Assembly (NCBI RefSeq): GCF_024700885.2
Contig: NZ_CP117016.1
DNA: 64,000 nt
Strand: one strand, 5' to 3'
Origin: Escherichia coli
GTDB lineage: Bacteria; Pseudomonadota; Gammaproteobacteria; Enterobacterales; Enterobacteriaceae
The notes below the pieces were generated by a model that worked only from the letters and a program-made list of their open reading frames with translations, was not told the DNA's origin and ran no database searches. Every line of letters begins with the position of its first letter. Position 1 is the first letter of the stretch. Made by a program: the position numbers and the translations under genes. Shown here piece by piece: positions 37,177-64,000 of the stretch.

Positions 37177-37180
37177 TTTT

Positions 37181-37239
37181 CTCTGCAAAACCTCTGCAAA
37201 ACCCCTCTGCAAAACTGGTCATCAAATGACCAGTTTTTT
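37181..37239. other. putative attL region: 3 x CTCTGCAAAAC tandem repeat plus ompW terminator hairpin overlapping the int stop codon
   Basis: Repeats at 37181-37191, 37192-37202, 37205-37215; hairpin ctggtcat/atgaccag (37215-37233) followed by TTTTTT; int stop codon lies inside the hairpin. Confidence 0.5.
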
Positions 37240-38352
37240 CCATTCCTTACCGCGTGCATCGTTATAAATATCGGTCATTTTTTGATTCGAATGGCCTAGC
37301 AAAATTTTGGTATCAACCCCCTGCTCTCTGAACAATCGCTCTGATAAAGATCTCTGCTCATGGAAAGAGGGTGGGGTGCCATTAGCACGCCAGTTGTAAT
37401 CCACAGAATCCCGGGCTTTTTTAAATGCAACGGTTAATGTTGCTGGCTTAACCATCCCGCCGCGCTTAGCTGTCCCTTTCGCGTGATGGTGGTGCAATAG
37501 CCACGGACTAAGAACGCAATCGCGGCAGGATGACACTACATCATCCAGGGTGAGATTTAATTTATCGCAACGCAGAGCCAGAGGGATGGCAATCCGGGTT
37601 CCTGTTTTTTGCTGTTCGACATGAAGATAACCATCCCGGATATCCGAAAATTGCATTTTGCAAATATCTGAAAGGCGCTGGCCTGTCATCAGTGCCAGCA
37701 GCATACCGCGCTGTAAAAAGTAACCATCCTTTTCCGCTGCGTTATAAATCATCATCCACTCATCAAAAGTCAGTCGCTGTCTTGATATCCGCACCTGCGG
37801 TTTTTTTGCCGATTCTGCAGGGTTAAAGCCTGGCGGGACATCGCCCGTTTGCTGAGCTTCCCGGAAAACATCGATCAGTACTTTCCTGAAAATTTGTCCC
37901 ATTCTGTTATGTCCTCTGGCCTTGTACTCTTCCAGTACTGATACCACATCTTTTACGGTTATGGCATCTAACGGTCTGGTGCCAAAACGTTCATCAAATA
38001 CCCTGAGAGGGGCCGCTTTCTGTTTCAGCGTGTTGAGTTTGATCTCGCCGTTTTCATATCTTTCCTGTTGAATTTTTCTGTAATTATTCAGAAAAATGGT
38101 AACGGTTGATGAACCGCCGGTATCACTAATAATTTTCTCCTGCAGACTGAGCATTTGTTCCATTTGCTGCCGGGCAAGACGGCTGTTCGCTTCTGCTGCA
38201 ATAGTTTCTGCCAGTTTCTGGTCAATACTGCCGAGACCGTGATTTTTGCCTGTTATGGGATGCCTGTAACGCCAGTAAACTTTGTTATTTCTTTTGTCAA
38301 AATACGGAGATAATCCCGGAACATCGGTTTTATATTTTCGCGGGCGCGCCAT
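37222..38352 (-). CDS. int: tyrosine-type site-specific integrase
   Basis: 376-aa ORF; the C-terminal HxxR...Y catalytic region typical of phage integrases is inferred, not aligned. Confidence 0.9.
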   Translation of the reverse strand: MARPRKYKTDVPGLSPYFDKRNNKVYWRYRHPITGKNHGLGSIDQKLAETIAAEANSRLARQQMEQMLSLQEKIISDTGGSSTVTIFLNNYRKIQQERYENGEIKLNTLKQKAAPLRVFDERFGTRPLDAITVKDVVSVLEEYKARGHNRMGQIFRKVLIDVFREAQQTGDVPPGFNPAESAKKPQVRISRQRLTFDEWMMIYNAAEKDGYFLQRGMLLALMTGQRLSDICKMQFSDIRDGYLHVEQQKTGTRIAIPLALRCDKLNLTLDDVVSSCRDCVLSPWLLHHHHAKGTAKRGGMVKPATLTVAFKKARDSVDYNWRANGTPPSFHEQRSLSERLFREQGVDTKILLGHSNQKMTDIYNDARGKEWKKLVI

Positions 38353-38578
38353 CTTCCAGTATCCTCTTCAAAGCAGGGTGATCTGTGGCGATCACCTCCG
38401 GCTTGTTTACCATTCCGACAAAGCGAGCTTGCGGATCCACTCGCCAGCGTCTTCCAACTTTTTTGGGGAGAGGAAATATCATTCCGGCTTTAGCGTATTT
38501 ACTTAACGTACTCGGAGTAGGGACCGGTTCACTGAATTCCTCTTTTGCCCACTCAGTGAGCAGAATAAGTCTTGCCAT
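38330..38578 (-). CDS. xis: excisionase
   Basis: 82-aa ORF overlapping the int start; winged-helix Xis-like sequence (MIFPLPKKVGRRWRV). Confidence 0.8.
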   Translation of the reverse strand: MARLILLTEWAKEEFSEPVPTPSTLSKYAKAGMIFPLPKKVGRRWRVDPQARFVGMVNKPEVIATDHPALKRILEDGAPAKI

Positions 38579-38642
38579 GAGCGTCGTTCGCTAATCATGG
38601 TCGCCGCCACTATAGCTGGTGGGCAACGACCGGGGTTGAACA

Positions 38643-41834: not shown

Positions 41835-42389
41835 TTATTTTAAGGAAAGCAACTGCTCTACGGTCATATTTTTAATTGCGCTCCGGTTTACAAGAGTCCA
41901 GCCTTGTTGCTCCAGATAAAACAGGAAGGTATCCAGGGTGCAGACCATTGCGCCGTCAGGAACGGTTTCAGTGAATTTGATATTGCCGTGTTCGTCGAGA
42001 CGGATAACCAGGGTGCGTCCGTCCCCGTGAATCATTTTGTCGGGAGACGGGGCGTTATTCTGGCGCAGTTCAGCTTCCATGCGGTCGAACTCAGCAATGT
42101 ATGCCTCTTTAAATGCAGCGGCTTTTTTGCCAGTGAAGCCCATCACCAGGAAAACGAAGCCGTTTTTGGTGATTTGGTACATTGGGAGTTTGCGCCCGGT
42201 TGAGTCGGTGTATTCGCTCGACACAAAATTGTGCTCAGTGAATTTTGCTGAACAGTCCAGATTGCGAATTTTATCCAACACTCGTTCGTGGCGTTTGCCA
42301 AAGAACTCGGCGATCGCAACAGACGTAGTGACAGCGCGACCATTTTCGATGGTTACGTCAGGGTGAGAAAGGGTAAGGATAGTAGCCAT
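41835..42389 (-). CDS. Rha-family phage regulatory protein
   Basis: ORF 41835..42686; the segment from the Met at 42389 (MATILTLSHPDVTIENGRAVTTSVAIAEFFGKRHERVLDKIRNL...) resembles the Rha family; the N-terminal extension in the ORF track is probably not translated. Confidence 0.65.
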   Translation of the reverse strand: MATILTLSHPDVTIENGRAVTTSVAIAEFFGKRHERVLDKIRNLDCSAKFTEHNFVSSEYTDSTGRKLPMYQITKNGFVFLVMGFTGKKAAAFKEAYIAEFDRMEAELRQNNAPSPDKMIHGDGRTLVIRLDEHGNIKFTETVPDGAMVCTLDTFLFYLEQQGWTLVNRSAIKNMTVEQLLSLK

Positions 42390-43253
42390 GATGGCAGCCT
42401 CCGCGATGAATTTGATTAACTCACCACCGAGGTTTTCCACGACCATAAGGGTGGTGAGACGTACAGGGGTGGAAATACCGGTCATCACGGAACCCGGCCA
42501 GCCTTGCGGCTGCCCTGCACGCCCCACCATAATGCGAATGTGGCTGTGCTTAACGCATAAAAAAACCGCCTGAGCGCGGTTATGCGCCGTGAATGATTTC
42601 GGGTTTCCACGCCCGGCACCCGTTTTATGAGGTGCAGGTGCACTATAATTCCACCCGTTCTGGTTTTCAATAGCTACATTCAACATTTTCTCTACCTTTC
42701 ATCACCGAAGTGAACTTTGTTGATGCGGTGCCTGGTGCCTCCAGGTGATGTTAACCAGTTAACAATTAACGCCGGATACAGAGAATCCACCCATAACACT
42801 GTTTTTGGTTTTAACTGTTCCGCGTGCGCTGAGCCGCATTCACCGCATCACAAAATTCACTTTAAAAAGGGCGGCAGAGCAGTCACGGAGTAAAACTGAT
42901 ACCGCCAAAAGTCACCAGAAAATTGATAACAGAGGGCGTTGCAGCGGAGTTGTCACTTAAGCGTATGGTCAACCTGACAACCCGGTGTCCTCAACGGGGG
43001 AAGGAATAACCCCGCCATACTTACCGCCGCGCCATTTCGCGGAGTGCCACAACCGGAAGCGCACGGTCGAACTAAATTTAACGACACCGTACAGAGAGAC
43101 CAATTTCGCCGTGCGCTTTCGCGTTATGCCCTGACTTTTCAGGGACATATCCTTTCAGTAAACTGTCAGTGCCGGATGTTCACCCGTGTCCGGCGCACGC
43201 ACTCCACCTGACCCGTGGAGAACTCCTTAATTACCAACCCTCAGGAGGGTGAA

Positions 43254-44329: not shown

Positions 44330-45004
44330 TCAGTCTAAGTATTGATGTATTTGTGAAACTTTACCTTTAATGGTGTAACCACCATTCAGTTCGATGGGTT
44401 TGTAAAGCGGATTCAGTGACAACAGATAGATGTTTGGTCCGTCAATCGCAACTTTTTTTAGTGTTACGTTTGGCGTTCCTTCCAATTGGATTAAGATTAT
44501 TTTTCCCACCAGTTCTCTAATGTTACTTGAGCATGGTGTGATCAGCACGGTAGATCCGTCGGGGATGGTTGGGAGGCCGTTAGAGTTTGTCATCGCATCT
44601 CCCTCAACATGCAATAAAAAAGAGTTTTCAGCGGTTTTTGTCATGACATCAACCCAGTTCTTAATACCAGGAATCTTGGTTACTGGACAACTCATATCCC
44701 AATAACCAGCCTGTTCCCACGTTAAAACGGGCAACCGGGCGATGTTGTCACTAATGTAAGGGTACTGATTCAGACGCAGATCATCGGTTTTATCGTGACC
44801 GTCCTTTCCATAAAGAATCCATTCAGGAGATTTGGAAAGCAATTTTGACAGTAGATACAAATTCTCACCGTCAGGTTTTGAAGAGCCATTTTCCCATTTT
44901 GTTACGGATACACGAGATATGCCGATTGCTTTCGCAACCTGCTGTTGGGTTAATCCAACGTCTTTTCGACGATTCCGAATACGTTCGCTGATAGTGTTTT
45001 TCAT
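44330..45004 (-). CDS. cI: CI-like prophage repressor (HTH-XRE + S24 LexA-like peptidase domain)
   Basis: ORF 44330..45103; HTH (VGLTQQQVAKAIGISRVSVTKWENG) and C-terminal autocleavage domain; start placed at the Met at 45004 so operators stay intergenic (alternative Met at 45046). Confidence 0.75.
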   Translation of the reverse strand: MKNTISERIRNRRKDVGLTQQQVAKAIGISRVSVTKWENGSSKPDGENLYLLSKLLSKSPEWILYGKDGHDKTDDLRLNQYPYISDNIARLPVLTWEQAGYWDMSCPVTKIPGIKNWVDVMTKTAENSFLLHVEGDAMTNSNGLPTIPDGSTVLITPCSSNIRELVGKIILIQLEGTPNVTLKKVAIDGPNIYLLSLNPLYKPIELNGGYTIKGKVSQIHQYLD

Positions 45005-45068
45005 GTAACCAATGTTACTACCAAGTGATGTTGCTATGGTTGACATTGTTATGTAACTATTGTTACCC
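45005..45068. promoter_or_regulatory. putative OR/PR/PRM region with GTAAC-N4-GTTAC operators
   Basis: Palindromes gtaaccaatgttac (45005-45018) and gtaactattgttac (45053-45066); perfect -35 TTGACA at 45040-45045 facing the cro-like gene. Confidence 0.5.
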
Positions 45069-45095
45069 TTCTGCTCGAAATAACAGGAGAGTTTT

Positions 45096-45311
45096 ATGTT
45101 CAAAGATGATGTTCTGCGCTATTTCAAAAAAAAGCGACTAGTAGCTGAGGCTCTTGGAATTTCACATGTGGCTGTTGTGCGGTGGAAAGCAGTTATTCCC
45201 AAACTTCGCGCAATGGAACTGGATGAAATTACTAACGGTGAATTGAAATACAACCCAGAACTTTACAAGAAGCAGGATAGCACCTCGAACGAAGGAAAGA
45301 ATGATTCATGA
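45096..45311 (+). CDS. Cro-like HTH regulator
   Basis: 71-aa ORF with AGGAGA Shine-Dalgarno; HTH (KKRLVAEALGISHVAVVRWK); divergent from the repressor. Confidence 0.65.
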   Translation: MFKDDVLRYFKKKRLVAEALGISHVAVVRWKAVIPKLRAMELDEITNGELKYNPELYKKQDSTSNEGKNDS

Positions 45312-45733
45312 AAATCAAGCATGAACACATCCGCATGGCGATGAATGCCTGGGCGCATCCGGACGGCGAAAAAGTACCGGCTGCGAAAATTACCAAAGCG
45401 TATTTCGAGCTGGGAATGACGTTCCCGGAACTGTATGACGACAGCCATCCGGAAGCCCTGGCCCGTAATACCCAGAAAATTTTCCGTTGGCTGGATAAAG
45501 ACACCCCTGATGCTGTTGAAAAAATGCAGGCTCTGTTACCGGCGATCGAAAAGGCGATGCCGCCTTTGCTGGTGGCCCGTATGCGCAGCCACAGTTCTGA
45601 ATATTACCGTGAGATCGTCGAACGGAGGGATCGGCTGGTGAAGGATGTCGATGATTTTGTTGCGTCAGCGGTTGTTTTGTATGACCAGATGAATCGCGGC
45701 GGCCCGGCAGGGAATGCTGTGGTGATGCACTAA
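45308..45733 (+). CDS. hypothetical early protein at the cII position (possibly YdaT-like)
   Basis: 141-aa ORF translationally coupled to the cro-like gene; family assignment is from memory only. Confidence 0.4.
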   Translation: MKIKHEHIRMAMNAWAHPDGEKVPAAKITKAYFELGMTFPELYDDSHPEALARNTQKIFRWLDKDTPDAVEKMQALLPAIEKAMPPLLVARMRSHSSEYYREIVERRDRLVKDVDDFVASAVVLYDQMNRGGPAGNAVVMH

Positions 45734-45755: not shown

Positions 45756-46718
45756 ATGAGCAGCAAGCTTCATGGTCTTGTCTGGGAAGGGTGCGCCTTC
45801 ACCGGCATGATCTTATCCAGGGTGGCGGTTATGGCCCGTCTTGCAGACTACAGCAATGACGAGGGCGTGTCATGGCCTGCCATTGAAACTATCCGGCGTC
45901 AGATCGGTGCAAGAAGTGAATCCACAGTGAAATCGGCTATTGCAGAACTGGCGAAAGAGGGCTGGCTGACGAAGGAAGAGCGTAAGGTCGGTGGGCGTAA
46001 TGTAAGCAATATCTATCGGCTTAATGTGGAAAAACTCGAAGCAGCTGCGGCGGCGGCGCGTGAGTCATATAAACCGAAAAGAAAAATTAGCCCGGCAAAA
46101 AATGACCCGTTAACAGTTGACCCGTCAAATATTGACCCCTCAACGGTTGACCCGTCAAATTTTGATGGATCAACTGTTGATAAAAAACTGCCGATTAGGG
46201 GGCCGATGATTGACCCCGATCCGTCAGTATTAAAACCTGATCCGTCAGATAAAAGATCTTCTTGTCCGGACGCTTCGCAACCGGACCCGCAGACGGCTGA
46301 ACAGGATTTTTTAACCCGACACCCTGACGCGGTTGTGTTCAGTGCGAAAAAACGCCAGTGGGGAAGTCAGGAAGATTTGGTGTGCGCACAGTGGATCTGG
46401 GGACGAATCGTGAGTCTTTACGAGCAGGCGGCCAGCTATGATGGCGAGATCACTAGACCGAAAGAACCCAACTGGACAGCATGGGCCAATGACGTTCGCA
46501 CAATGCGGATGCTGGATGGCAGAACTCACAGACAAATTTGTGAAATGTTTGGGCGTCTCCAGCGGGATTCGTTCTGGGTAAAAAACATCATGAGTCCGGC
46601 AAAACTCCGGGAAAAATGGGATGAACTGGTTATCCGCCTGGGGCGTTCGCCTGCGCAGCGTTGCGTGAATCACATTTCTGAACCGGACACTGAAATACCG
46701 CCGGGATTCAGGGGGTGA
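45756..46718 (+). CDS. replication initiator (phage O-like, N-terminal HTH)
   Basis: ORF 45741..46718; ATG at 45756; N-terminal HTH; contains internal iterons (next feature). Confidence 0.7.
   Translation: MSSKLHGLVWEGCAFTGMILSRVAVMARLADYSNDEGVSWPAIETIRRQIGARSESTVKSAIAELAKEGWLTKEERKVGGRNVSNIYRLNVEKLEAAAAAARESYKPKRKISPAKNDPLTVDPSNIDPSTVDPSNFDGSTVDKKLPIRGPMIDPDPSVLKPDPSDKRSSCPDASQPDPQTAEQDFLTRHPDAVVFSAKKRQWGSQEDLVCAQWIWGRIVSLYEQAASYDGEITRPKEPNWTAWANDVRTMRMLDGRTHRQICEMFGRLQRDSFWVKNIMSPAKLREKWDELVIRLGRSPAQRCVNHISEPDTEIPPGFRG
46100..46180 (+). repeat. candidate origin iterons inside the O-like gene
   Basis: Four ~18-bp direct repeats (ccgttaacagttgac / ccgtcaaatattgac / ccctcaacggttgac / ccgtcaaattttgat) followed by an A/T-rich stretch; encode the peptide repeat DPLTVDPSNIDPSTVDPSNFD. 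Confidence 0.65.
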
Positions 46719-46724
46719 CGTGTC

Positions 46725-48263: not shown

Positions 48264-48278
48264 TTGCCGGAGGCGCTT

Positions 48279-52401: not shown

Positions 52402-52782
52402 ATGACCGAGCGCATAGAATTTGTTTTACCTTACCCGCCGACGGTGAACACTTACTGGCGACGCCGTGGCAGCACATATTTTATCTCGGAGGAGGGAAAG
52501 CGTTATCGCCGGGCTGTGGCGCTTATTGTTCGCCAGCAGCGGCTGAAATTAAGCCTGTCCGGAAGGCTGGCGATAAAGGTGATTGCAGAGCCACCGGATA
52601 AGCGTCGTCGCGACCTGGACAATATCCTGAAAGCACCGCTGGATGCGCTGACGCATGCGGGAGTGTTAATGGACGATGAGCAGTTTGATGAAATCAATAT
52701 CGTTCGTGGTCAGCCAGTATCTGGTGGACGTCTGGGGGTGAAGATTTACCCCATAATGCATGAAGAGCAGGTCAAAAAATGA
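52402..52782 (+). CDS. rusA: Holliday junction resolvase RusA
   Basis: 126-aa ORF with the RusA-like pattern (LPYPPTVNTYWRRRG...RRRDLDN...). Confidence 0.8.
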   Translation: MTERIEFVLPYPPTVNTYWRRRGSTYFISEEGKRYRRAVALIVRQQRLKLSLSGRLAIKVIAEPPDKRRRDLDNILKAPLDALTHAGVLMDDEQFDEINIVRGQPVSGGRLGVKIYPIMHEEQVKK

Positions 52783-54174: not shown

Positions 54175-55224
54175 ATGCTTAATACTGTAAAAATATCCAG
54201 TTGTGAGTTAATCAACGCCGACTGCCTGGAATTTATCCGGTCGTTACCCGAAAATTCTGTTGACCTGATAGTCACGGACCCGCCGTACTTTAAAGTGAAG
54301 CCTGAGGGCTGGGATAACCAGTGGAAGGGCGACGATGATTACCTGAAGTGGCTGGACCAGTGTCTGGCGCAGTTCTGGCGGGTGCTGAAACCTGCCGGAA
54401 GTCTTTACCTGTTCTGTGGTCATCGCCTGGCATCTGATATCGAAATCATGATGCGTGAACGCTTCAGTGTGCTGAACCATATTATCTGGGCGAAGCCGTC
54501 CGGACGCTGGAACGGATGCAACAAGGAAAGCCTGCGGGCGTATTTCCCCGCCACAGAGCGCATTCTGTTCGCGGAACATTATCAGGGGCCGTATCGTCCG
54601 AAAGATGCCGGGTATGCGGCGAAGGGCAGTGCACTGAAACAGCATGTGATGGCCCCGCTGATTTCTTACTTTCGTGATGCGCGCGCGGCCCTGGGGATAA
54701 CGGCAAAACAGATTGCAGATGCCACAGGAAAGAAAAACATGGTGTCGCACTGGTTCAGTGCCAGTCAGTGGCAGCTACCGAATGAAAGCGATTATCTGAA
54801 ATTACAGGCGCTGTTTGCCCGGGTGGCAGAAGAGAAGCATCGGCGTGGTGAACTGGAAAAGCTCCACCACCAGCTGGTGGATACGTATACCTCACTGAAC
54901 CGGCAGTATGCGGAGCTGCTGAGTGAATATAAACATCTGCGGCGGTATTTTGGCGTGACGGTGCAGGTGCCGTATACCGATGTGTGGACGCATAAACCGG
55001 TGCAGTTCTATCCCGGGAAACATCTGTGCGAAAAACCGGCAGAAATGCTGCAGCAGATAATCAGCGCAAGCAGTCGTCCGGGTGACCTGGTTGCAGATTT
55101 TTTCATGGGGTCGGGTTCAACGGTAAAAGCGGCGATGGCACTGGGGCGTCGTGCGATTGGCGTTGAACTGGAGACCGGACGTTTTGAGCAGACAGTCAGG
55201 GAAGTTCAGGATTTAATCGTTTGA
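54175..55224 (+). CDS. orphan DNA N6-adenine/N4-cytosine methyltransferase (DPPY motif)
   Basis: 349-aa ORF with catalytic IVTDPPYF near the N-terminus and AdoMet-binding FFMGSGST near the C-terminus; no adjacent restriction endonuclease ORF. Confidence 0.8.
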   Translation: MLNTVKISSCELINADCLEFIRSLPENSVDLIVTDPPYFKVKPEGWDNQWKGDDDYLKWLDQCLAQFWRVLKPAGSLYLFCGHRLASDIEIMMRERFSVLNHIIWAKPSGRWNGCNKESLRAYFPATERILFAEHYQGPYRPKDAGYAAKGSALKQHVMAPLISYFRDARAALGITAKQIADATGKKNMVSHWFSASQWQLPNESDYLKLQALFARVAEEKHRRGELEKLHHQLVDTYTSLNRQYAELLSEYKHLRRYFGVTVQVPYTDVWTHKPVQFYPGKHLCEKPAEMLQQIISASSRPGDLVADFFMGSGSTVKAAMALGRRAIGVELETGRFEQTVREVQDLIV

Positions 55225-55273
55225 AACGGATGAGATTGCAGAATTAATTACGCACCATTATTATTCTGCTTCC

Positions 55274-55349
55274 GGCCCTTTAGCTCAGTGGTGAGAGCGA
55301 GCGACTCATAATCGCCAGGTCGCTGGTTCAAATCCAGCAAGGGCCACCA
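55274..55349 (+). tRNA. tRNA-Ile (anticodon CAU, ileZ-like) or tRNA-Met
   Basis: 76 nt; perfect 7-bp acceptor stem (GGCCCTT/AAGGGCC), D and T arms, anticodon loop CTCATAA, 3' CCA. Confidence 0.85.
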
Positions 55350-55449
55350 TCACAAACCGCCATTAGCTTATCAGGAAGAGCAGACGACACGATAACAGGG
55401 TTGTTGGTGCGGGGGCGGGTCCCCGATGGCGGTCCATTATCGGTATTCA

Positions 55450-55526
55450 GCGTTGTTAGCTCAGCCGGACAGAGCAATTGCCTTCTAAGCAATCGGTCAC
55501 TGGTTCGAATCCAGTACAGCGCGCCA
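55450..55526 (+). tRNA. tRNA-Arg (anticodon UCU, argN/argO-like)
   Basis: 77 nt; acceptor stem GCGTTGT/ACAGCGC, anticodon loop CTTCTAA, T loop TTCGAAT, 3' CCA. Confidence 0.85.
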
Positions 55527-55633
55527 TATTCATTCTTCCAGATTCCTTTCGGCAGAGCCTTATACTGAAATATACCTGGCTCAGGATATTGTTGAAAATA
55601 TTATATGTTTGTCAAAAATAAAAGTTCTGTTAA

Positions 55634-55990
55634 GTGTTGATTGAGTGTTTGTTATACGGTCTAATGGTTTTTTCAGCATTAAATATTTATCATTCATATG
55701 GTGTGGGTAGAGTGAATATTGATGAGGCGTCGGGGTGTTTCATCCTTAGGCAGCGTATTGATATAGTCAATGCAGAACGAGCAAAGGCCTTCAGCCGTTT
55801 GACAGTTTTGTTCTGTACTCCTGATCGTCTTTCGGGAAGAGACGTTATTATTCTGAATAGTGATGCTATACAGAGGGTTTGCGATGAGTTCATGGTGGCT
55901 AATTCAGAATTATTTGCTCTTGTTCAGGAGTACAACAGAATAGCCAGGACCTGTGGTATGGATGAACTTCGGATTACTCATCTGGGGTAG
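55634..55990 (+). CDS. hypothetical cargo protein in the AT-rich slot downstream of the phage tRNAs
   Basis: 118-aa ORF (GTG start; internal ATG alternatives); no recognisable motif. Confidence 0.4.
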   Translation: MLIECLLYGLMVFSALNIYHSYGVGRVNIDEASGCFILRQRIDIVNAERAKAFSRLTVLFCTPDRLSGRDVIILNSDAIQRVCDEFMVANSELFALVQEYNRIARTCGMDELRITHLG

Positions 55991-56437
55991 ATACATATCT
56001 GGATTATCACCGGTTACGGTAAAAAGTGATTGCTTACTGTTTTTGTGAATGGCATTGCAGCAGCCGGATAATGTCAGTGCTGGCTGACGGTGTGCTGGTG
56101 GCGGGTGTGGTGGTTGCTGCTTTCCCGTTGCTGAAAAAGAAAACGCCAGACTGTTAGCCGGGTATCAGTTAGCGGGAGAAATTTTTAAATACTTCACAAT
56201 TCAGGCGGTTGACTGTTGTCTGGTTTGCGGGGAGTTTGTTAAAAGAAACTGGCATGGTGAATCCCCCTGTGCGGAGGGGCAATCAGCGAGTAGGTATATG
56301 GGATAATCGCGGATTCAGGTGCTGGTACTGAATTCACCGGGAGGCACCCGGCACCATGCAATGGCACATAGCGCCACTCTCCAGCCCCTCTCCGGAGGGG
56401 CTGTTTATATTGATTTTGTCAGATGTGAGTAAACTCC

Positions 56438-56773
56438 TTATGGACTTTGTTGTTTTAGCCCATAAGGACATATTTGCAGAGTGCAACGGTTATTAAAGCA
56501 TTCATTCAATACGTTATCTGTATTTGTAGGGCATTCCTGGCTGTTTTTGATTAAATTCCAGAATGTTTTATTGAATGGTACTACGTTGTAAATGGTTACA
56601 GGCAGCACTTTGTTATTGAGCATGATGCCTGTGTGAGTCAGTGTAAATATACTTTCAGGAGGTAAGAAAGCATCCGATTGATACCAGATTATTAATTTTA
56701 TTTTACTCCATATGACTGAAAAAGATATTCCGCATGATGGCTGGATAACTGTATCAATCACAATCCACTTCAT
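56438..56773 (-). CDS. hypothetical cargo protein (Cys-containing C-terminus)
   Basis: 111-aa ORF on the minus strand with AGGAAA Shine-Dalgarno; AT-rich context. Confidence 0.4.
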
Positions 56774-57033
56774 TTAGTTTCCTTGTTTATGCCTTGCTGG
56801 TGATGTTCTGAAAAGTATAAATGATATTTTTGATTGTAAACCATAGAGCAGAATTATTTTTCTGATGTTGTTTATTGTTTATTTAAATGCAGGGTGGTTT
56901 ATATCTCGTCTTGTAGTTTATCCATGCATATCTGCTTGATGATGAGGTTTTTAATTAAGGTATGGTTTTGTGTTTTTTCTGTATTACATGTCAGGTATTT
57001 TAAAGAATCATTTTTCAGATGGTGGAAAGAACC

Positions 57034-58890
57034 ATGGCATTTAAACACTATGATGTTGTCAGGGCGGCGTCGCCGTCAGATCTTGCGGAAAAGCTGACAC
57101 ATAAAATGAAAGAGGGCTGGCAGCCGTTTGGTAGTCCGGTGGCCATAACCCCTTATACCCTGATGCAGGCGATTGCAGCAGAAGGTGATGTGGTCGTCAG
57201 TGGTGCAACTGAGCCGGAGTGGTACTACGTCATCGTACTGGCCGGGCAATCCAATGCCATGGCTTACGGTGAAGGGCTTCCGCTTCCGGATTCTTACGAT
57301 GCGCCCCACCCACGCATTAAGCAACTGGCCCGTCGCAACACAGTGACTCCCGGTGGTAAAGCATGCGCATTTAACGACATCATTCCGGCAGACCACTGCC
57401 TGCATGATGTTCAGGATATGAGCGCACTGAATCATCCGAAGGCAGACCTGAGCAAAGGGCAGTACGGCTGTGTCGGCCAGGGCTTACATATTGCCAAAAA
57501 ACTGCTTCCGTATATCCCGAATAACGCGGGGATCCTGCTGGTACCATGCTGTCGTGGTGGTTCGGCATTCACCCAGGGCGCGGAGGGGACATTCAGTGCG
57601 GACACGGGGGCCAGCCAGGATTCGGCACGCTGGGGTGTGGGTAAACCGTTATATCAGGACCTGATCGCACGCACCAAAGCGGCATTACAGAAGAACCCGA
57701 AAAATGTGTTGCTGGCGGTGTGCTGGATGCAGGGCGAATTTGACATGAGCGCTGCCACCTACGCACAGCAACCGGACCTGTTCACGGCCATGCTGAAGCA
57801 GTTCCGTACTGACCTTTCCGGATTTAACGCGCAGTGCCATGGCGGCAGTGCTGCAGTTGTACCGTGGATTTGTGGCGACACGACGTATTACTGGAAAAAC
57901 ACATACGGCACACAGTATGACTCCGTCTACGGCGCGTACAAAAACAGGGAGAGCGACAACGTTTTCTTTGTGCCGTTCATGACCGACGGTAACGGCAACA
58001 ACACGCCCACCAACTTACCGGCAGAAGACCCGGATATTGCTGATGCAGGTTATTACGGCGCGCAATCCCGTAGTAATGGTAATTGGGTATCGTCAAATCG
58101 TCCGACACATTTCAGTTCATGGGCGCGCAGGGGCATTATTTCGGATCGCCTGGCAACCGCTATTCTGAACGCAGTTGGTCGAACCAGCGCCTTCATCAGC
58201 GGTACCGCACCGGAGATTAAACCCTCGCCCGGCGGCGACACGCCATCGGGGCCGTCTGATGGTGACACATCCGTTCGTACAGTCTCCCTGCTGCCGACAG
58301 CCGGAGAGGCTGCTGCGCAGGGCTGGACCATCACCGGCGGCAGTGTTGCGCTGGAAGATGGTGTGTTTAAGGTTACCAAGCAGAGCAATAAAACCTGGTC
58401 CCTGATGCATCCGGTGGATGACGCGGTCTCCCTGCTGACACGGGGTGGCAGACTGAGCTGTAAGTTTCGACTGTCAGGCGCACTGACCAACAACCAGTTC
58501 GGTCTGGGAATTTATCTGTATACCGATGTAGCGTTACCTGACGTCGTGGCGATGACCGGGACTGGTAACCCGTTCCTGATGTCGTTCTTCACCCAGACCA
58601 CAGACGGCAAACTGAATCTGATGCATCACAAGAAAGCCGGAAACACAAAGTTGGGCGAGTTCGGGAATTACAGTAACGACTGGCAGACGCTGGAGCTGGT
58701 GTTCACCGCCGGCAGTGCCACGGTTACTCCGAAACTGAATGGAGTGGCTGGCCCGGCATTCCAGGTCATAAAAGACAGTCTGACACTGGGGCTGAATGCG
58801 CTGACGCTGACGGATATTACCAAAAATGCAGCGTATGGCGTTGAGATAGAAAGTCTGGTGCTGGAGATAAATGCACCGGCATCATCATAA
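57034..58890 (+). CDS. NanS-p-like esterase (N-terminal DUF1737-like + SGNH/sialate O-acetylesterase-like domain)
   Basis: ORF 57019..58890; ATG at 57034 with GGTGGA Shine-Dalgarno; N-terminus MAFKHYDVVRAASPSDLAEKLTHKMKEGWQPFGSPVA; same position as the large esterase downstream of stx in Stx phages. Confidence 0.6.
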   Translation: MAFKHYDVVRAASPSDLAEKLTHKMKEGWQPFGSPVAITPYTLMQAIAAEGDVVVSGATEPEWYYVIVLAGQSNAMAYGEGLPLPDSYDAPHPRIKQLARRNTVTPGGKACAFNDIIPADHCLHDVQDMSALNHPKADLSKGQYGCVGQGLHIAKKLLPYIPNNAGILLVPCCRGGSAFTQGAEGTFSADTGASQDSARWGVGKPLYQDLIARTKAALQKNPKNVLLAVCWMQGEFDMSAATYAQQPDLFTAMLKQFRTDLSGFNAQCHGGSAAVVPWICGDTTYYWKNTYGTQYDSVYGAYKNRESDNVFFVPFMTDGNGNNTPTNLPAEDPDIADAGYYGAQSRSNGNWVSSNRPTHFSSWARRGIISDRLATAILNAVGRTSAFISGTAPEIKPSPGGDTPSGPSDGDTSVRTVSLLPTAGEAAAQGWTITGGSVALEDGVFKVTKQSNKTWSLMHPVDDAVSLLTRGGRLSCKFRLSGALTNNQFGLGIYLYTDVALPDVVAMTGTGNPFLMSFFTQTTDGKLNLMHHKKAGNTKLGEFGNYSNDWQTLELVFTAGSATVTPKLNGVAGPAFQVIKDSLTLGLNALTLTDITKNAAYGVEIESLVLEINAPASS

Positions 58891-59040
58891 AAAGTGAGCC
58901 AGTCAAATGGAAGGTATCGTTAAACTCACCGGTAGTGTCAGTGGGTCGTCTGAGATGCCTGCATGAGTTATCAGAGCCATCAGTACTTAACTGGTGGCTT
59001 TTTTTATTGTTGTCAGCTTCCGGATAACGGGAGACGGGGT

Positions 59041-59256
59041 ATGTACCAGATGGAAAAAATCACAACAGGTGTGTCATACACCACGTCAGCGGTGGGAACG
59101 GGCTACTGGTTCCTGCAGTTGCTGGACAGGGTTTCCCCGTCTCAGTGGGCGGCAATAGGCGTGCTGGGGAGTCTGCTGTTTGGGCTGCTGACATATCTGA
59201 CTAACCTGTATTTCAAAATCAGAGAGGACCGTCGTAAGGCTGCACGGGGAGAGTAA
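59041..59256 (+). CDS. phage-21-type pinholin (class II holin, dual-start motif)
   Basis: ORF 58963..59256; [71 protein letters not shown] (71 aa), two Met starts three codons apart. Confidence 0.8.
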
Positions 59257-59302
59257 TTCAATGACTCAAAACTATGAACTGATTGTGGGTAATGACTCCA
59301 AC

Positions 59303-59806
59303 TTATTGATAGTGTTTTATGTTCAGATAATGCCCGATGACTTTGTCATGCAGCTCCACCGATTTTGAGAACGACAGCGACTTCCGTCCCAGCCGTGCCA
59401 GGTGCTGCCTCAGATTCAGGTTATGCCGCTCAATTCGCTGCGTATATCGCTTGCTGATTACGTGCAGCTTTCCCTTCAGGCGGGATTCATACAGCGGCCA
59501 GCCATCCGTCATCCATATCACCACGTCAAAGGGTGACAGCAGGCTCATAAGACGCCCCAGCGTCGCCATAGTGCGTTCACCGAATACGTGCGCAACAACC
59601 GTCTTCCGGAGCCTGTCATACGCGTAAAACAGCCAGCGCTGGCGCGATTTAGCCCCGACGTATCCCCACTGTTCGTCCATTTCCGCGCAGACGATGACGT
59701 CACTGCCCGGCTGTATGCGCGAGGTTACCGACTGCGGCCTGAGTTTTTTAAATGGCGGAAAATCGTGTTGAGGCCAACGCCCATAATGCGGGCGGTTGCC
59801 CGGCAT
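59303..59806 (-). CDS. insB: IS1 transposase InsB
   Basis: 167-aa [53 protein letters not shown]... Confidence 0.95.
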
Positions 59807-60000
59807 CCAACGCCATTCATGGCCATATCAATGATTTTCTGGTGCGTACCGGGTTGAGAAGCGGTGTAAGTGAACTGCAGTTGCCATGTTTTACGGCAGT
59901 GAGAGCAGAGATAGCGCTGATGTCCGGCGGTGCTTTTGCCGTTACGCACCACCCCGTCAGTAGCTGAACAGGAGGGACAGCTGATAGAAACAGAAGCCAC
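59725..60000 (-). CDS. insA: IS1 protein InsA
   Basis: 91-aa [46 protein letters not shown]... Confidence 0.95.
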
Positions 60001-60451
60001 TGGAGCACCTCAAAAACACCATCATACACTAAATCAGTAAGTTGGCAGCATCACCCTGATTGTGAAAGGGATCCGCAATTTTGAGAATAAAGTTACGGTA
60101 ACTTTAGCGTTACGGGACAAAAAACGCTTTGACGGTGAAATTTTTGACCTGGACATCTCGCTGGACCGTGTTGAAGGTGCCACGCTGGAGTTTTATGAGG
60201 CAGCAGCCAGAAGGAGCATCAGACAGGTCTTCCTGGATGTTGCTGCCGGGTTATGTGAAGGGGATGAGCAGTCGCCGGAAAAGCGCCCCGTAATTTTAGA
60301 GGCGCAGAATGTATGGATAACCTACAAAGGAAAGCTACCGGGAATAATTACTGGTTCTCTGAAGACTCCTCCGGAATCACAACCTTAAGTCACTGACCGG
60401 AACAGATAAACCTGTCCGTGGGCAGAAACCGATAAATCCTGATAAATATCC

Positions 60452-60985
60452 ATGAACACCAAAATCAAATACGGCCTGTCGGCTGCCGTTCTGGCGCTGA
60501 TTGCCGCTGGTGCGCCTGCGCCTGACATTCTCGACCAGTTTCTGGATGAAAAGGAAGGTAACCACACCACGGCATACCGTGATGGCGCGGGTATCTGGAC
60601 CATCTGCCGCGGTGCCATCCTGGTGGATGGCAAACCTGTCGTTCCTGGCATGAAGTTGTCGAAGGAAAAATGCGACCGGGTTAACGCCATTGAGCGTGAT
60701 AAGGCGCTGGCATGGGTGGAGAAAAACATCAGAGTGCCATTGAGTGAACCCCAGAAAGCGGGGATCGCGTCATTCTGTCCGTACAACATTGGCCCCGGTA
60801 AGTGTTTTCCGTCGACGTTTTATAAACGAATTAATGCAGGTGATCGCAGGGGAGCGTGTGAGGCGATTCGCTGGTGGATTAAGGACGGTGGCAGGGACTG
60901 CCGTATTCGCTCAAATAACTGTTACGGTCAGGTATCCCGTCGTGACCAGGAGAGCGCGCTGGCGTGCTGGGGAATCGACAGATAA
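60452..60985 (+). CDS. SAR (signal-anchor-release) endolysin, phage-21 R-type lysozyme
   Basis: 177-aa ORF with N-terminal hydrophobic SAR segment (GLSAAVLALIAAGAPAP) and lysozyme catalytic region (E...D...T). Confidence 0.85.
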   Translation: MNTKIKYGLSAAVLALIAAGAPAPDILDQFLDEKEGNHTTAYRDGAGIWTICRGAILVDGKPVVPGMKLSKEKCDRVNAIERDKALAWVEKNIRVPLSEPQKAGIASFCPYNIGPGKCFPSTFYKRINAGDRRGACEAIRWWIKDGGRDCRIRSNNCYGQVSRRDQESALACWGIDR

Positions 60986-61076
60986 GCAGAATATTTTGCT
61001 AATAAATGACGTTGGCCAAGGCGGATGGATAACACGAAATCCTGCGAACTGGCAAAATGTAAGTGAATAAAAGTAA

Positions 61077-61115
61077 AAACCCCGTTTGTTGGCAGCAAGC
61101 GGGGTTTTGTTTTTA
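61077..61115 (+). terminator. terminator-like hairpin downstream of the endolysin
   Basis: Stem aaccccg/cggggtt with 15-nt loop followed by TTGTTTTT. Confidence 0.5.
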
Positions 61116-61179
61116 TGGCAGTAAGCTATGGGAGGCTGCCTTGATTGATTTTAGCAAACTGATTAGGGAGTTGCGACTC

Positions 61180-61275
61180 ATGATTAGTCAATTACCAAAC
61201 TGGAAATTTTTGCTGGTCTGGAGCATCCCTTTTTTATGGGTAGTATCCCAGTTAATTGTGGCAATTAAGGGGTAG
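61180..61275 (+). CDS. candidate small membrane peptide (31 aa)
   Basis: AGGGAG then ATG; MISQLPNWKFLLVWSIPFLWVVSQLIVAIKG. Confidence 0.3.
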   Translation: MISQLPNWKFLLVWSIPFLWVVSQLIVAIKG

Positions 61276-61277
61276 CT

Positions 61278-61409
61278 ATGTCAGACAAACTCATAACGCC
61301 GGCAAAGGTCCTGTGTGTGATTGTCGGTATTTCATTTTCACTAATGCTGGTTGCTCTTTTTCTGTCCTTCGCCTGGGTGATGTTGTCTTCGTCGGGGCTG
61401 CTGGGGTGA
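61278..61409 (+). CDS. candidate small membrane peptide (43 aa)
   Basis: AAGGGG then ATG; MSDKLITPAKVLCVIVGISFSLMLVALFLSFAWVMLSSSGLLG. Confidence 0.3.
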   Translation: MSDKLITPAKVLCVIVGISFSLMLVALFLSFAWVMLSSSGLLG

Positions 61410-61528
61410 CAGTGACTGATGACATCAGCAGAGCGCTGGCTTTTGCTATTAAGTGGGTGGCTGTTGGTATTGCTGTGTCTCCGATGCTGTATGGGCTGGC
61501 AAAACTGGTCATTGCGCTGAAATCGTGA
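61406..61528 (+). CDS. candidate small membrane peptide (40 aa)
   Basis: GTG start overlapping the previous stop (GTGA); VTVTDDISRALAFAIKWVAVGIAVSPMLYGLAKLVIALKS; similar to the next peptide. Confidence 0.3.
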   Translation: MTVTDDISRALAFAIKWVAVGIAVSPMLYGLAKLVIALKS

Positions 61529-61539
61529 ACTTTAAAAAG

Positions 61540-61626
61540 ATGAGTGCTGAACTTATTCGGGCAATGGCATTTGCCATTCGTATTGTGGCCATTGCTGTTC
61601 TGGTCTGGGCAATCCGTTGGTGGTGA
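61540..61626 (+). CDS. candidate small membrane peptide (28 aa)
   Basis: [28 protein letters not shown]; stop 1 nt before the Rz start. Confidence 0.3.
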
Positions 61627-61627
61627 T

Positions 61628-62122
61628 ATGAACCGTGTTCTGTGTGTGGTGATTATTGTCCTGCTGGTAGCCTGTGGTGTGCTTAGTCTGGGGCTGAATC
61701 ATTACCGCGATAACGCCATCACCTACAAAGCGCAGCGCGATAAAAAAGTCAGTGAGCTGAAACTGGCGAATGCCACTATTACTGACATGCAGCAGCGCCA
61801 GCGAGATGTCGCTGCGCTTGATGCCAGATACACGAAGGAATTAGCCGATGCGAGAGCTGAAAATGAAACTCTGCGCGCTGATGTTGCCGCTGGTCGTAAG
61901 CGCCTGCGGGTCAACGCCACCTGCCCCGGTACCGTGCGTGAAGCCACCGGCACCTCCAGCGTGGATAATGCAACCGGCCCCCGACTGGCAGACACCGCTG
62001 AACGGGATTATTTCATCCTCAGAGAACGGTTGATGACAATGCAGAAGCAGCTGGAAGGGGCGCAGGAATATATCCGCACTCAGTGCACTAAGCTGGCTTT
62101 TTATTATCCGGAGGATACATGA
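61628..62122 (+). CDS. i-spanin Rz
   Basis: ORF 61544..62122; Met at 61628 gives 164 aa with N-terminal TM helix and coiled-coil periplasmic domain; embedded Rz1 frame. Confidence 0.8.
61863..62033 (+). CDS. o-spanin Rz1 (lipoprotein embedded in Rz in the +1 frame)
   Basis: [15 protein letters not shown] lipobox followed by a proline-rich mature peptide, entirely inside Rz. Confidence 0.8.
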
Positions 62123-62343
62123 AGAAATTACGGGTAACCGTAGAACCTTTTCAGGGAACAATTCCGTTCCGTATTTTGCAGCGTGGTCGTGTTCTTGTTG
62201 AAGGTTCGTTCAGTGGTAAATGTACGCAATTACACTCCCGGACCTTTCAGGTGAATGCCACGAATGAAGAGCTAACCGTGGAGTGTACGATGAATGCCGC
62301 TAAATGCCGCATGGTATCCGCTGCATTACAGCCAGTGTGTTGA
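62119..62343 (+). CDS. hypothetical protein translationally coupled to Rz
   Basis: 74-aa ORF, ATG overlaps the Rz stop (ATGA), GGAGGA Shine-Dalgarno. Confidence 0.45.
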
Positions 62344-62541
62344 GCGACCTTATTATCCATGCGCGGTATTGTCGCCGTATTCCTGCATTAACAGAGACCG
62401 CAGCCCGACAGGGAGACTCCTCTGCGCGAGTGTGCGGGGATAATCAAAAACGATACACACCGGGGTTTACCGCGTTAACGGAGCGCGGCGTTGTCCCCTC
62501 ATAGTCGCCTGTCCGGTGCGATGGTGGAAGAAACCGAACGT

Positions 62542-62742
62542 TCATTTCTCGTTATTTGTCATGCTGGCCGGGCGCAGATGCGTTGCATCTGTTGCCAGCC
62601 TTCTCCTGCAGGCTTCAATAACCCACGCTGAAAAGTTACCGGACCCTTTATGCTCAAGGGCGATGTTGATCTGTTCAATTATGTGATTGGGGAAACGGAT
62701 ATTGCGGGTTGTGGTTCTGCGGGTACGGTTTTTCGATGACAT
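62542..62742 (-). CDS. small ribbon-helix-helix-like DNA-binding protein (YlcI-like)
   Basis: ORF 62542..62802; Met at 62742 with AAGGAAA Shine-Dalgarno; MSSKNRTRRTTTRNIRFPNHIIEQINIALEHKGSGNFSAWVIEACRRRL. Confidence 0.5.
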   Translation of the reverse strand: MSSKNRTRRTTTRNIRFPNHIIEQINIALEHKGSGNFSAWVIEACRRRLATDATHLRPASMTNNEK

Positions 62743-62783
62743 ATTTATTTCCTTTACTGATTGCCATATGACGGGGATTTTAC

Positions 62784-63149
62784 ATGGCTGAGCTTCGTAC
62801 ACTCCAGAGCAGAATCAAAACACTGAATACCCGACGGGTGAATATTCTGAAGGGTGAACAGCGTCGTGTCAGTGGCAGTGCACGTGTTTCCCTCAAGCGT
62901 CATATCTGGCTCAGGGACGCCGGGCAGTGCCGTCTCTGTGGTCGTGTGGTTGACCTCTGTGACAGTGAACTCGATCACCGAATTGCACTTCAGTTCGGTG
63001 GTGGTAATGAGGAGACGAATCTCTGGACGCTCTGTACCGAATGCCATCGACAAAAGTCTGCTCGTGAAGCGGCGAGTGGTATGCCGGACCCGACGCTGCC
63101 GGAGGTGTCCGGAGGTAGTGGCAGAGAGGACGACATCATCGGACTGTAA
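62784..63149 (+). CDS. HNH endonuclease (terminase-associated)
   Basis: 121-aa ORF with HNH zinc-binding motif (CRLCGRVV...DHRIALQFGG...NLWTLCTECHRQK) directly upstream of the terminase. Confidence 0.8.
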   Translation: MAELRTLQSRIKTLNTRRVNILKGEQRRVSGSARVSLKRHIWLRDAGQCRLCGRVVDLCDSELDHRIALQFGGGNEETNLWTLCTECHRQKSAREAASGMPDPTLPEVSGGSGREDDIIGL

Positions 63150-63242
63150 CCCAACCCGGGGGGGGGTATCATCCGGCGTAAAAAACGATCGCTTTGGACA
63201 CCGCGCCCCCTCTCACGCAGAGAAAAAATTCCCGTTTCAGGG

Positions 63243-63366
63243 CAGTTAACATGTTAACTGGCTGCCCGGGCATTTTTGCGGTTTTTATCTTTATTATTCA
63301 GTTTGTTGTGCGGAAAAAATGTTAACAGGCTTTTTCAGCAAATGTTAACCAGGCAGCAGTTAACAT
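63243..63366. repeat. GTTAACAT repeat cluster (18-bp perfect palindrome plus three more copies), candidate cos/terminase-binding region
   Basis: cagttaacatgttaactg (63243-63260), atgttaac at 63319-63326 and 63342-63349, inverted gttaacat at 63359-63366, with an A/T-rich spacer. Confidence 0.5.
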
Positions 63367-63440
63367 TTGCGGCATGAGACGCCGGGAAAAATGGGCTGAA
63401 CCATACCCGGCTGAGTGCGTTCTGGACCCGGGAGGAGGCT

Positions 63441-64000
63441 GTGCTGACAACGCAAAAACGAAAATTTGCGCTGGCGCTCATGTCCGGGAAAAACAAAACA
63501 GCGTCAGCCATTGCCGCCGGTTATTCGGCGAAGACCGCCAGGGTTAAAGGCTCGCAGCTGGCAAAAGATCCGGAGGTGCTTGCGTTTATAGCCCGTAAAC
63601 AATGCGAGACGGTGGAGGTGGATGAGGTTCCTGTTTACCGGCAGAAAAAATCAGAGCAGGAGGATAAACCCCGTCGCCGTGAGGCGGCTGCAATACCACA
63701 GCCGGACGAAAACAATCCGGAGATGCCACCGTCCGCGGTGATGTCTCCTGGTATTGAATATATGGAGGATGGTCTTCCCGATCCGGTGAAAGCCATGGGG
63801 CGGATCCTGGTGGAAAACCTCTGCATTGATCCGAAACTGGCACTGGATGCGGCCTGGCGTCTGGCGCAGTTCACGCACCATAAAAAAGGGGATACCGGGA
63901 AAAAATCGGCAAAAGGTGATGCCGCGAAAAAAGCGGCTAACCGTTTTGCGGTGCCACCGCCACCCCGACTGGTGGTGAATAACGATAATGAGGGCAACGG
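63441..64000 (+). CDS. terminase small subunit (5' partial; runs off the window end)
   Basis: GTG at 63441 preceded by GGAGGAGG; the frame is open to position 64000 (VLTTQKRKFALALMSGKNKTASAIAAGYSAKTARVKGSQLAKDPEV...); not in the ORF track because no stop lies within the window. Confidence 0.7.
   Translation, partial: MLTTQKRKFALALMSGKNKTASAIAAGYSAKTARVKGSQLAKDPEVLAFIARKQCETVEVDEVPVYRQKKSEQEDKPRRREAAAIPQPDENNPEMPPSAVMSPGIEYMEDGLPDPVKAMGRILVENLCIDPKLALDAAWRLAQFTHHKKGDTGKKSAKGDAAKKAANRFAVPPPPRLVVNNDNEGN

Follow-up and report, generated by a model that had tools for sequence, protein, structure and literature searches.

The window, a stretch of 64,000 nucleotides of Escherichia coli DNA, runs through the chromosomal genes nar to tonB-yciABC-ompW. 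Beyond these come int, xis and the whole of a lambdoid early, regulatory and lysis region, and the window breaks off inside a small terminase gene (Table 1). An earlier note had read the chromosomal gene order from the letters, and this order is confirmed by the RefSeq annotation of strain MLI114 (NZ_CP117013.1), which shows a single mismatch (one SNP in the chromosomal flank) over positions 1-37913. The note was also right that a phage integrase directly follows ompW and that only the left end of the element is in view; an excisionase gene and about 26 kb of phage genes come after the integrase gene. Its statements on K-12 were accurate: in MG1655, yciE and yciF lie directly after ompW, and an ISZ/insZ element lies between tdk and adhE. 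The insZ element is missing here, where tdk (18243-18860) and adhE (19162-21837) are separated by 301 bp. The IS5 that lies between ychE and oppA in K-12 is likewise absent from the window.

Every functional module in the window received a PHROG assignment. The int and xis genes stand beside one att end, a CI-type repressor gene and cro are divergent, with a CII-like gene and then O/P-type replication genes behind them, and Q is located upstream of a holin-endolysin-Rz cassette that an IS1 element interrupts between holin and endolysin. From the late operon expected of a lambdoid phage, with terminase, portal, capsid, a lambda-like non-contractile tail and J, only the start of the small terminase gene falls in the window, and the full set is annotated in MLI114. 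The prophage is a mosaic whose lambdoid regulatory circuit (cI/cro/cII-like, O/P, Q) is complete and which has a lysis cassette. The earlier view that the prophage is lambdoid and its host an E. coli other than K-12 is supported.

Table 1. Coordinates of ompW, the attachment site and the prophage features in the window
Feature	Position	Strand	Basis or remark
Chimeric ompW, 212 aa	36538-37176	+	36538-37085 chromosomal, 37086-37176 phage-borne
attL, 121-bp imperfect att duplication of PPompW phages	37058-37178	+	121/121 identical to LC567822 repeat_region
Exact 28-bp core CAGTGTGGTACATGGATATCGATACCAC	37058-37085	+	Common to attL, attR and K-12 attB (three-way comparison)
Phage-borne substitute ompW 3' end, last 30 codons and stop	37086-37176	+	DNA diverges from K-12 and attR
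Three direct TCTGCAAAAC repeats	37182-37215 (at 37182, 37193, 37206)	+	Exact copies, none else in the 64-kb window
Hairpin with A-tract and T-tract flanks	37211-37239		RNA fold -17 kcal/mol, z = -5.2 vs shuffles
Integrase, lambda-Int-type tyrosine recombinase	37222-38352	-	Pfam Arm-DNA-bind_1, Phage_int_M, Phage_integrase
Excisionase	38330-38578	-	phrog_629, E = 3.7e-35; RefSeq
Exonuclease VIII (RecE-like), 814 aa	38643-41087	-	phrog_607, E = 1e-276
Rha/antirepressor-like regulator, overlapped by C4 and IsrK RNA matches	41835-42686	-	PHROGs, Rfam
dicB remnant, 84 bp	42716-42799	-	RefSeq
DicF sRNA	42869-42920	-	Rfam, RefSeq
CI/LexA-type repressor	44330-45046	-	PHROGs; immunity region 44330-45733 (phrog_4, phrog_409, phrog_163)
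Cro	45096-45311	+	PHROGs; immunity region
CII-like/YdaT	45308-45733	+	PHROGs; immunity region
Replication genes: O-like initiator, DnaC-like helicase loader	45756-47471	+	phrog_391, phrog_50
Accessory block: DUF1627, Ren-like, NUDIX hydrolase, HAD phosphatase, hok/sok	47493-50895	+	PHROGs, NCBIfam, Rfam sok, RefSeq hokD
DUF968/YdfU, RusA resolvase, Q antiterminator	51343-53600	+	phrog_96, phrog_34, phrog_127
DNA methyltransferase, tRNA(CAU), tRNA-Arg(UCU)	54175-55526	+	phrog_6025/67, PADLOC MTase_II; ARAGORN, Rfam
Moron region (stx position of Stx phages): STnc100 sRNA, iraM, DUF6645	56223-58890		Rfam, NCBIfam IraM, phrog_143, RefSeq, ORF list
iraM	56438-56773	-	NCBIfam IraM
DUF6645 protein	57034-58890	+	Moron region
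Class II holin	59041-59256	+	phrog_9876/20
IS1, 768 bp	59288-60055	-	Terminal inverted repeats; empty site in otherwise identical MLI114
Endolysin	60452-60985	+	PHROGs (with Rz: phrog_7, phrog_13)
Rz spanin	61628-62122	+	PHROGs (with endolysin: phrog_7, phrog_13)
HNH endonuclease	62784-63149	+	PHROGs (with terminase: phrog_589, phrog_641), RefSeq
Small terminase subunit, cut by window end	63441-64000	+	PHROGs (with HNH: phrog_589, phrog_641), RefSeq

In Stx-converting phages, stxA and stxB lie between Q or the tRNA genes and the lysis genes. In the corresponding interval (55527-59040), we found neither stxA, stxB nor other toxin cargo, only DUF3927, STnc100, iraM and DUF6645. The tRNA(CAU) preceding this interval is named Ile in RefSeq. 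A PADLOC defence scan of ten accessory proteins returned only an orphan-type match for the methyltransferase and a weak match of the NUDIX protein to the candidate system PDC-S07.

The host-phage junction inside ompW

The phage-derived DNA begins at position 37086, inside ompW. The integration site is in the last 120 bases of this gene: the phage entered the coding sequence at a point 91 bp short of the stop codon, and the 3' end of the gene was replaced. The earlier placement of the prophage at ompW stands, but its position "immediately downstream" does not. The product of the chimeric gene scored 402 bits against the NCBIfam OmpW equivalog (cut-off 287). In the substitute end the last 17 codons show synonymous differences only, and seven residues are changed in the preceding nine-residue stretch. 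Automated boundary calls at the ompW stop codon are misplaced by about 90-120 bp because the boundary lies within the gene.

The attL site is 82% identical to the attR of MLI114. To the left of the 28-bp core, attR consists of phage-specific sequence; to the right of it, attL and attB part ways. We infer from this that strand exchange must have fallen within the core. A lambda-type Int with an arm-binding N-domain would have recombined attP with the ompW 3' site, the exchange taking place within 37058-37085. The attP carries its own copy, 81-82% identical, of the last ~90 bp of ompW, so that a full-length ompW is rebuilt at attL, ending in phage-encoded residues. The same event would place a phage-borne hairpin terminator after the rebuilt gene, and the native 3' end of ompW would come to lie at attR, some 53 kb off and beside yciE. 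Excision by Int and Xis would reverse the integration.

The integrase matched full-length lambda Int (5J0N/1Z1G) with E = 8.5e-56, and the R, K, H-x-x-R, H and Y positions are conserved, so that domain architecture and catalytic residues both agree with lambda. As in lambda, xis overlaps int, three tandem candidate sites lie by int in the P' arm, and the P arm has one candidate at a distance of about 129 bp. Arm motif and core sequence are unlike those of lambda. The TCTGCAAAAC repeats are candidate P'-arm Int arm-type binding sites: the integrase has the lambda arm-DNA-binding domain, and the P arm of the MLI114 attR holds a fourth exact copy, at -129 relative to the core. The P' arm sites of lambda are closer to the core than these candidates, which lie 124-157 bp from the core start; they are further out because the ~90-bp ompW substitute intervenes.

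The hairpin behind the repeats overlaps the int stop codon and, from its predicted fold, probably serves as an intrinsic terminator in both directions, for ompW as well as for int. A simple consensus terminator scan did not call it at 37211-37239; RNA folding shows it clearly.

A sister genome, relatives and alternative readings

Among complete RefSeq E. coli genomes MLI114 was the best match, covering 97% of the query. It is 100% identical to window positions 34913-59287 and 60056-64000, and the two prophages have the same sequence outside the IS1, which the window has in addition, together with a 9-bp duplication. The MLI114 element measures 52.9 kb (52,855 bp from core to core) and contains terminase, portal, capsid, tail, J and fibre genes. 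It ends at attR, where a displaced ompW remnant of 126 bp borders on yciE-yciF-yciG-trpA. Its terminase, portal, capsid, tape measure and J genes are intact, while pseudogenes near attR include tail-fibre-assembly fragments and a 60-aa recombinase fragment. Since the right end of the prophage lies outside the window, attR and the late genes of the window strain are deduced from this sister genome. If the unseen right half matches MLI114, the prophage would be about 53.6 kb long, the excess over 52.9 kb being due to the extra IS1. A further ompW prophage, in strain 600029, shows 99.7% identity over 93% of the query.

The ompW gene has been described as a hot spot of prophage integration (PMC3603311, PMC8112680), and lambda-like prophages in ompW have been named PPompW (Nakamura et al. 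2021, PMC8112680), for example PPompW_132418 (LC567822), O145:H28 P08. Circularised phage DNA was used to define their att site experimentally, as a stretch of 121 bp within ompW (PMC8112680). Relative to K-12, ompW and yciE are split by the insertion in the window strain, and its 121-bp att and integrase are 100% identical to those of PPompW_132418. The latter comparison, made with IntE (376/376 residues), lies well inside the limits of >90% identity over >90% length that PMC8112680 used as a search criterion with the reference gene EC112648_1574. The P-arm layout is also shared, with a conserved CTGCAAAAC motif at -129 (CCTGCAAAAC at this offset in PPompW_132418), as are the int-xis-exonuclease order and the lambdoid organisation. 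Outside this module the two phages differ: only ~24% of the 24.9-kb query aligns with PPompW_132418, at 93% identity, the immunity region is of the CI/LexA type in the window and of the dicA/dicC type in PPompW_132418, and replication genes and morons are different. The lysis cassette is present here and deleted in the O145 PPompWs. Positions 37086-64000 are very probably the left half of a temperate, lambda-like prophage that belongs to the PPompW family and was integrated by Int in the 3' end of ompW. A prophage of this kind at ompW is already known, its integration module being the published one.

Phage 21 and e14 in icd follow the same principle, as they use the 3' end of a coding gene and carry a substitute end that keeps the ORF length (PMC3603311); target gene and integrase specificity differ. 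The same study listed ompW as "disrupted", whereas the ORF in the window is restored to its full 212 aa.

Three other readings of the locus were weighed. The earlier note had taken 37181-37239 as the att core, with the phage wholly downstream of an untouched ompW. The ompW ORF is indeed of full length, and the repeats and hairpin follow its stop codon. However, 37181-37239 consists of three 10-bp repeats and the hairpin, and no more than one 10-mer of it recurs at attR, at -129. The duplicated att is 37058-37178, ompW differs over its final 91 bp from both K-12 and the attR copy, and the native 3' end was found at attR; we regard the reading of the note as practically negligible. A composite of two or more elements, either tandem prophages or a prophage within a prophage as in STEC PPompW, is suggested by the frequent presence of a second phage within PPompWs, integrated at an internal attB of 21 bp (PMC8112680). 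This attB-in-PP_1 gave no match with up to three mismatches in the window and the right half of MLI114, and the 52.9 kb of MLI114 contain a single integrase, immunity region, lysis cassette and structural gene set, which makes a composite very unlikely. The element does not belong to the PPompW subgroup whose right end carries attB-in-PP_1 in linkage with T3SS effector genes: no effectors are annotated at the MLI114 right end either. More improbable still is a decayed genomic island, for which the earlier note had named a missing attR or missing structural genes as the signs. The position of the right end outside the window is the sole point in its favour; the small terminase gene starts within the window, and MLI114, identical over all shared sequence, carries both a matching attR and a full late region, so that neither sign is present there.

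The PPompW prophage cannot be called strain-specific at this locus, as the earlier note had it; the term is misleading. The same ompW-int junction was present in 1715 of the 5426 complete E. coli genomes, O157:H7 included, and an uninterrupted ompW-yciE arrangement in 3434. At least 80% of positions 39100-64000 was recovered in only two of the 5426. The particular gene mosaic is therefore rare, while about a third of genomes have an occupied site. For the prophage itself the finding matters little beyond correct annotation. Prophages in ompW have also been reported in O157:H7 Sakai and EPEC E2348/69.

Prophage activity and a possible OmpW surface allele

The IS1 is flanked by a 9-bp target duplication, CTGATTGTG, at 59279-59287 and 60056-64, and splits a ydfR-like gene between holin and endolysin. 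An IS1 at this position was absent from all complete RefSeq E. coli genomes searched. Because of this location, virion production in the window strain may be impaired. Q-modified RNA polymerase, as known from lambda, passes through terminators, and IS1 polarity may therefore be limited. Together with the truncated dicB and the pseudogenes near attR in MLI114, the IS1 suggests some decay.

Such decay raises the question whether the element is a cryptic, defective prophage that may excise but can neither lyse the cell nor package DNA, and persists as a fixed island. This would concern its activity and not its identity, and is compatible with a PPompW prophage. The IS1 orientation opposite to late transcription, the dicB remnant and the MLI114 right-end pseudogenes point in this direction, as does the fact that every PPompW examined by Nakamura et al. 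was packaging-defective (PMC8112680). On the other hand, the ORFs for int, xis, cI, cro, O, P, Q, holin, endolysin and Rz are intact in the window, the main late genes are intact in MLI114, and the O145:H28 PPompWs, by contrast, combine the deleted lysis cassette with a frameshifted portal. We consider a defective state slightly less likely than not. Compared with the defective PPompWs described to date, this copy looks more complete, and a strain without the IS1, such as MLI114, is a possible source of an active phage that integrates in ompW.

The replaced ompW end also affects the protein. Over 191 residues aligned to PDB 2F1T/2MHL the sole difference is ANYKLGGAQQHD versus AKYKSGVTTVKD, and in this alignment the changed stretch sits between the last two beta-strands. 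Since an AlphaFold2 single-sequence model of the chimeric OmpW (pLDDT 28) was useless for placing the altered residues, their predicted location in surface loop L4 rests on the PDB alignment and the standard eight-strand barrel topology (PMC2993939). OmpW is the receptor of colicin S4 (PMC2649078). It is conceivable, though unlikely, that the change from NYKLGGAQQH to KYKSGVTTVK in this surface loop alters the sensitivity to colicin S4 or OmpW-dependent phages, which would amount to lysogenic conversion by att-site allele replacement. Among the papers searched that name ompW, prophage and colicin S4 together, no title on such a conversion was found. If true, roughly one E. coli strain in three would expose an OmpW surface allele encoded by a phage. 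The ompW gene at an occupied site is in any case a host-phage chimera, which bears on OmpW typing and on vaccine-antigen and colicin S4 receptor comparisons.

Insertion of the prophage inside ompW

The earlier note had placed a lambdoid prophage immediately downstream of ompW. The prophage is real and of the kind described (int, xis and a full lambdoid layout), but its insertion point moved into the gene when the window junction was compared with the K-12 empty site and with the right junction of the sister genome E. coli MLI114 (NZ_CP117013.1; human stool, Mali). All three contain CAGTGTGGTACATGGATATCGATACCAC, a block of 28 identical bases; left of this block the MLI114 right junction consists of phage DNA, and right of it the window departs from K-12. 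Because of this arrangement we place the exchange inside ompW, 91 bp ahead of the stop codon, so that 37086-37176 is a phage-borne replacement of the end of the gene. Measured from the block to a point shortly beyond the stop codon (121-122 bp), the window and the native copy at attR, the right phage-host junction, agree at 82% of positions. The chimeric ORF keeps its length of 212 aa, and its product still scores as OmpW in the curated NCBIfam model. Its last 17 residues are those of K-12, with only synonymous DNA differences, while just ahead of them ANYKLGGAQQHD is replaced by AKYKSGVTTVKD. Whereas ompW has been described as disrupted through phage integration (Bobay et al., PMC3603311), here and in the records of the PPompW prophage family the phage restores a full-length ORF of 212 aa. 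A tentative idea is that the phage-encoded tail might alter what barrel topology suggests is surface loop L4, and with it recognition by colicin S4 or phages.

The att core had been sought at 37181-37239, which was misplaced: the core is the 28-bp block, and the stretch itself consists of repeats and a hairpin. TCTGCAAAAC occurs three times as a direct repeat (at 37182, 37193 and 37206), followed by a hairpin with a 12-bp stem and A and T runs on either side (-17 kcal/mol, z = -5.2 by RNA folding), which overlaps the int stop codon. No further copy of this 10-mer occurs across the 64-kb window; one exact copy lies in the P arm of the MLI114 attR, at a distance of 129 bp from the core, and PPompW_132418, with a P arm otherwise conserved only across its last ~150 bp, carries CCTGCAAAAC at the same offset. 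The integrase, which carries a lambda Arm-DNA-binding domain, can be aligned with lambda Int from end to end and keeps its catalytic residues (R, K, H-x-x-R, H and Y). From the repeat positions, the P-arm copy, this domain and the alignment, we infer that the repeats are candidate arm-type Int sites, with the lambda-like arrangement of three sites in P' and one or more in P. The hairpin is a putative terminator for both the ompW and int transcripts.

The nar-to-ompW flank was described correctly, as was its relation to K-12. In MG1655, yciE-yciF-yciG-trpA lie directly 3' of ompW, an ISZ/insZ element lies between tdk and adhE, and IS5 between ychE and oppA. The window is 98.3-98.8% identical to this stretch and lacks both elements; its tdk-adhE gap is 301 bp (~300 bp in the earlier note).

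Features of the window
Feature	Position	Strand	Remark
Four tandem RtT repeats	11422-12339	-	after tyrT-tyrV; agrees with annotation of near-identical genome MLI114
Empty site of K-12 ISZ	19122-19131		between tdk and adhE; insertion absent here
Empty site of K-12 IS5	23211-23214		between ychE and oppA; insertion absent here
ompW	36538-37176	+	ORF calls
28-bp block	37058-37085
Integrase, 376 aa	37222-38352	-	directly after ompW
Excisionase	38330-38578	-	PHROG scan
RecE-like exonuclease, 814 aa	38643-41087	-	PHROG scan
Rha/antirepressor ORF	41835-42686	-	annotated as 283 aa
C4 antisense RNA and IsrK	42447-42635	-	Rfam, 81.9 and 67.7 bits
DicF sRNA and dicB remnant	42716-42920	-	DicF, 75.8 bits; adjoining dicB remnant, 84 bp
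NUDIX and HAD genes	48869-50175	+	nin-equivalent region
hok/sok (hokD-like)	50571-50895	+	type I toxin-antitoxin module
tRNA-to-iraM interval	55274-56773		downstream of Q and methyltransferase
IS1, 768 bp	59288-60055		9-bp target duplication CTGATTGTG

Gene content of the prophage

The layout is textbook lambdoid. Right of the exonuclease, PHROG, NCBIfam and Rfam scans identified a Rha/antirepressor-like gene with DicF and a dicB remnant, a CI/LexA-type repressor divergent from Cro and a CII-like gene, an O-like initiator and a DnaC-like loader, an accessory block (DUF1627, Ren-like, NUDIX, HAD, hok/sok), and DUF968, RusA and the Q antiterminator. A DNA methyltransferase and two tRNAs come next, then STnc100, iraM and a DUF6645 protein ahead of the lysis genes (holin, endolysin, Rz). 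At the right edge an HNH endonuclease precedes the start of the small terminase gene, cut by the window end. The same scans found no stx in the prophage part within the window.

The C4 and IsrK matches fall in the first ~85 codons of the Rha/antirepressor gene, so that either the true start codon lies further downstream than annotated or the regulatory RNA shares its sequence with the coding region. DicF is retained and the division-inhibitor gene dicB is truncated. The NUDIX protein, whose neighbour is a HAD sugar-phosphatase-like gene, weakly matches the PADLOC candidate defence family PDC-S07 (E = 7e-10). The interval ending with iraM, which encodes an anti-adaptor (an RssB/RpoS regulator), corresponds to that in which Stx phages carry stx downstream of Q. 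It holds tRNA-Arg(UCU), the STnc100 sRNA and a CAU-anticodon tRNA, Met according to ARAGORN but Ile according to RefSeq.

Family membership and frequency

A search of phage records returned 'Enterobacteria phage PPompW_*' entries from O145:H28. Window positions 37058-37178 are identical (121/121) to the 121-bp 'duplication due to insertion' annotated in LC567822, and the integrase is identical to that of PPompW (376/376). That 121-bp att was defined through sequencing attP of circularised phage DNA (Nakamura et al., PMC8112680). By these matches the element belongs to a family already on record, and RefSeq holds an essentially identical copy.

The locus had been read as strain-specific; it is instead a common hot spot, the same attL (left) junction occurring in 1715 of 5426 complete genomes (31.6%), O157:H7 strains included. 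The ompW-int-xis-exo arrangement is found in 1704 and an uninterrupted ompW-yciE in 3434 of these 5426. PPompW was reported in 44% of 767 complete E. coli genomes and 92 serotypes (PMC8112680), and ompW as one of the most occupied integration hot spots (PMC3603311). As a gene mosaic the element is rare: MLI114 and strain 600029 were the only genomes with 80% or more of 39100-64000, while 75% of this stretch, at 96% identity, is common to many other genomes, ST131 strains among them. The PPompW records share ~24% of it. Stx phages can insert into PPompW through a 21-bp internal attB (PMC8112680); this site was absent from the window and the MLI114 right half.

State of the prophage

MLI114 differs from window 1-37913 by one mismatch, is 100% identical to 34913-59287 and 60056-64000, and carries the whole element, with 52,855 bp from core to core. 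Its head genes comprise both terminase subunits, major capsid protein, portal and head-tail connectors; its tail genes comprise major tail protein, tape measure, minor tail proteins (including L), J, Lom and tail fibres, the tail-fibre end including an invertible-segment remnant. At its right end a 126-bp 'OmpW family, missing N-terminus' pseudogene is followed by yciE, yciF, yciG and trpA. A decayed island, which the earlier note had linked to a missing attR or missing structural genes, is therefore not what these late genes and attR describe; both are seen in this sister genome rather than in the window's own right flank, and the reading as a prophage holds.

All PPompWs examined by Nakamura et al. 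were packaging-defective (PMC8112680). Core genes of the O145 PPompWs are not all intact, whereas every core gene visible here is. The IS1, missing in MLI114 and found at this position in no complete RefSeq E. coli genome, interrupts a small ydfR-like gene that separates the holin and endolysin genes; together with the dicB remnant and the right-end pseudogenes of MLI114 it points to some decay. Outside the window, the right end of the MLI114 prophage (17231-21173 of the MLI114 sequence L001) holds tail-fibre-assembly genes in opposite orientations, several fragments, the remnant of a recombinase (60 aa) and a class I SAM methyltransferase, and has the look of an invertible host-range segment that has decayed.
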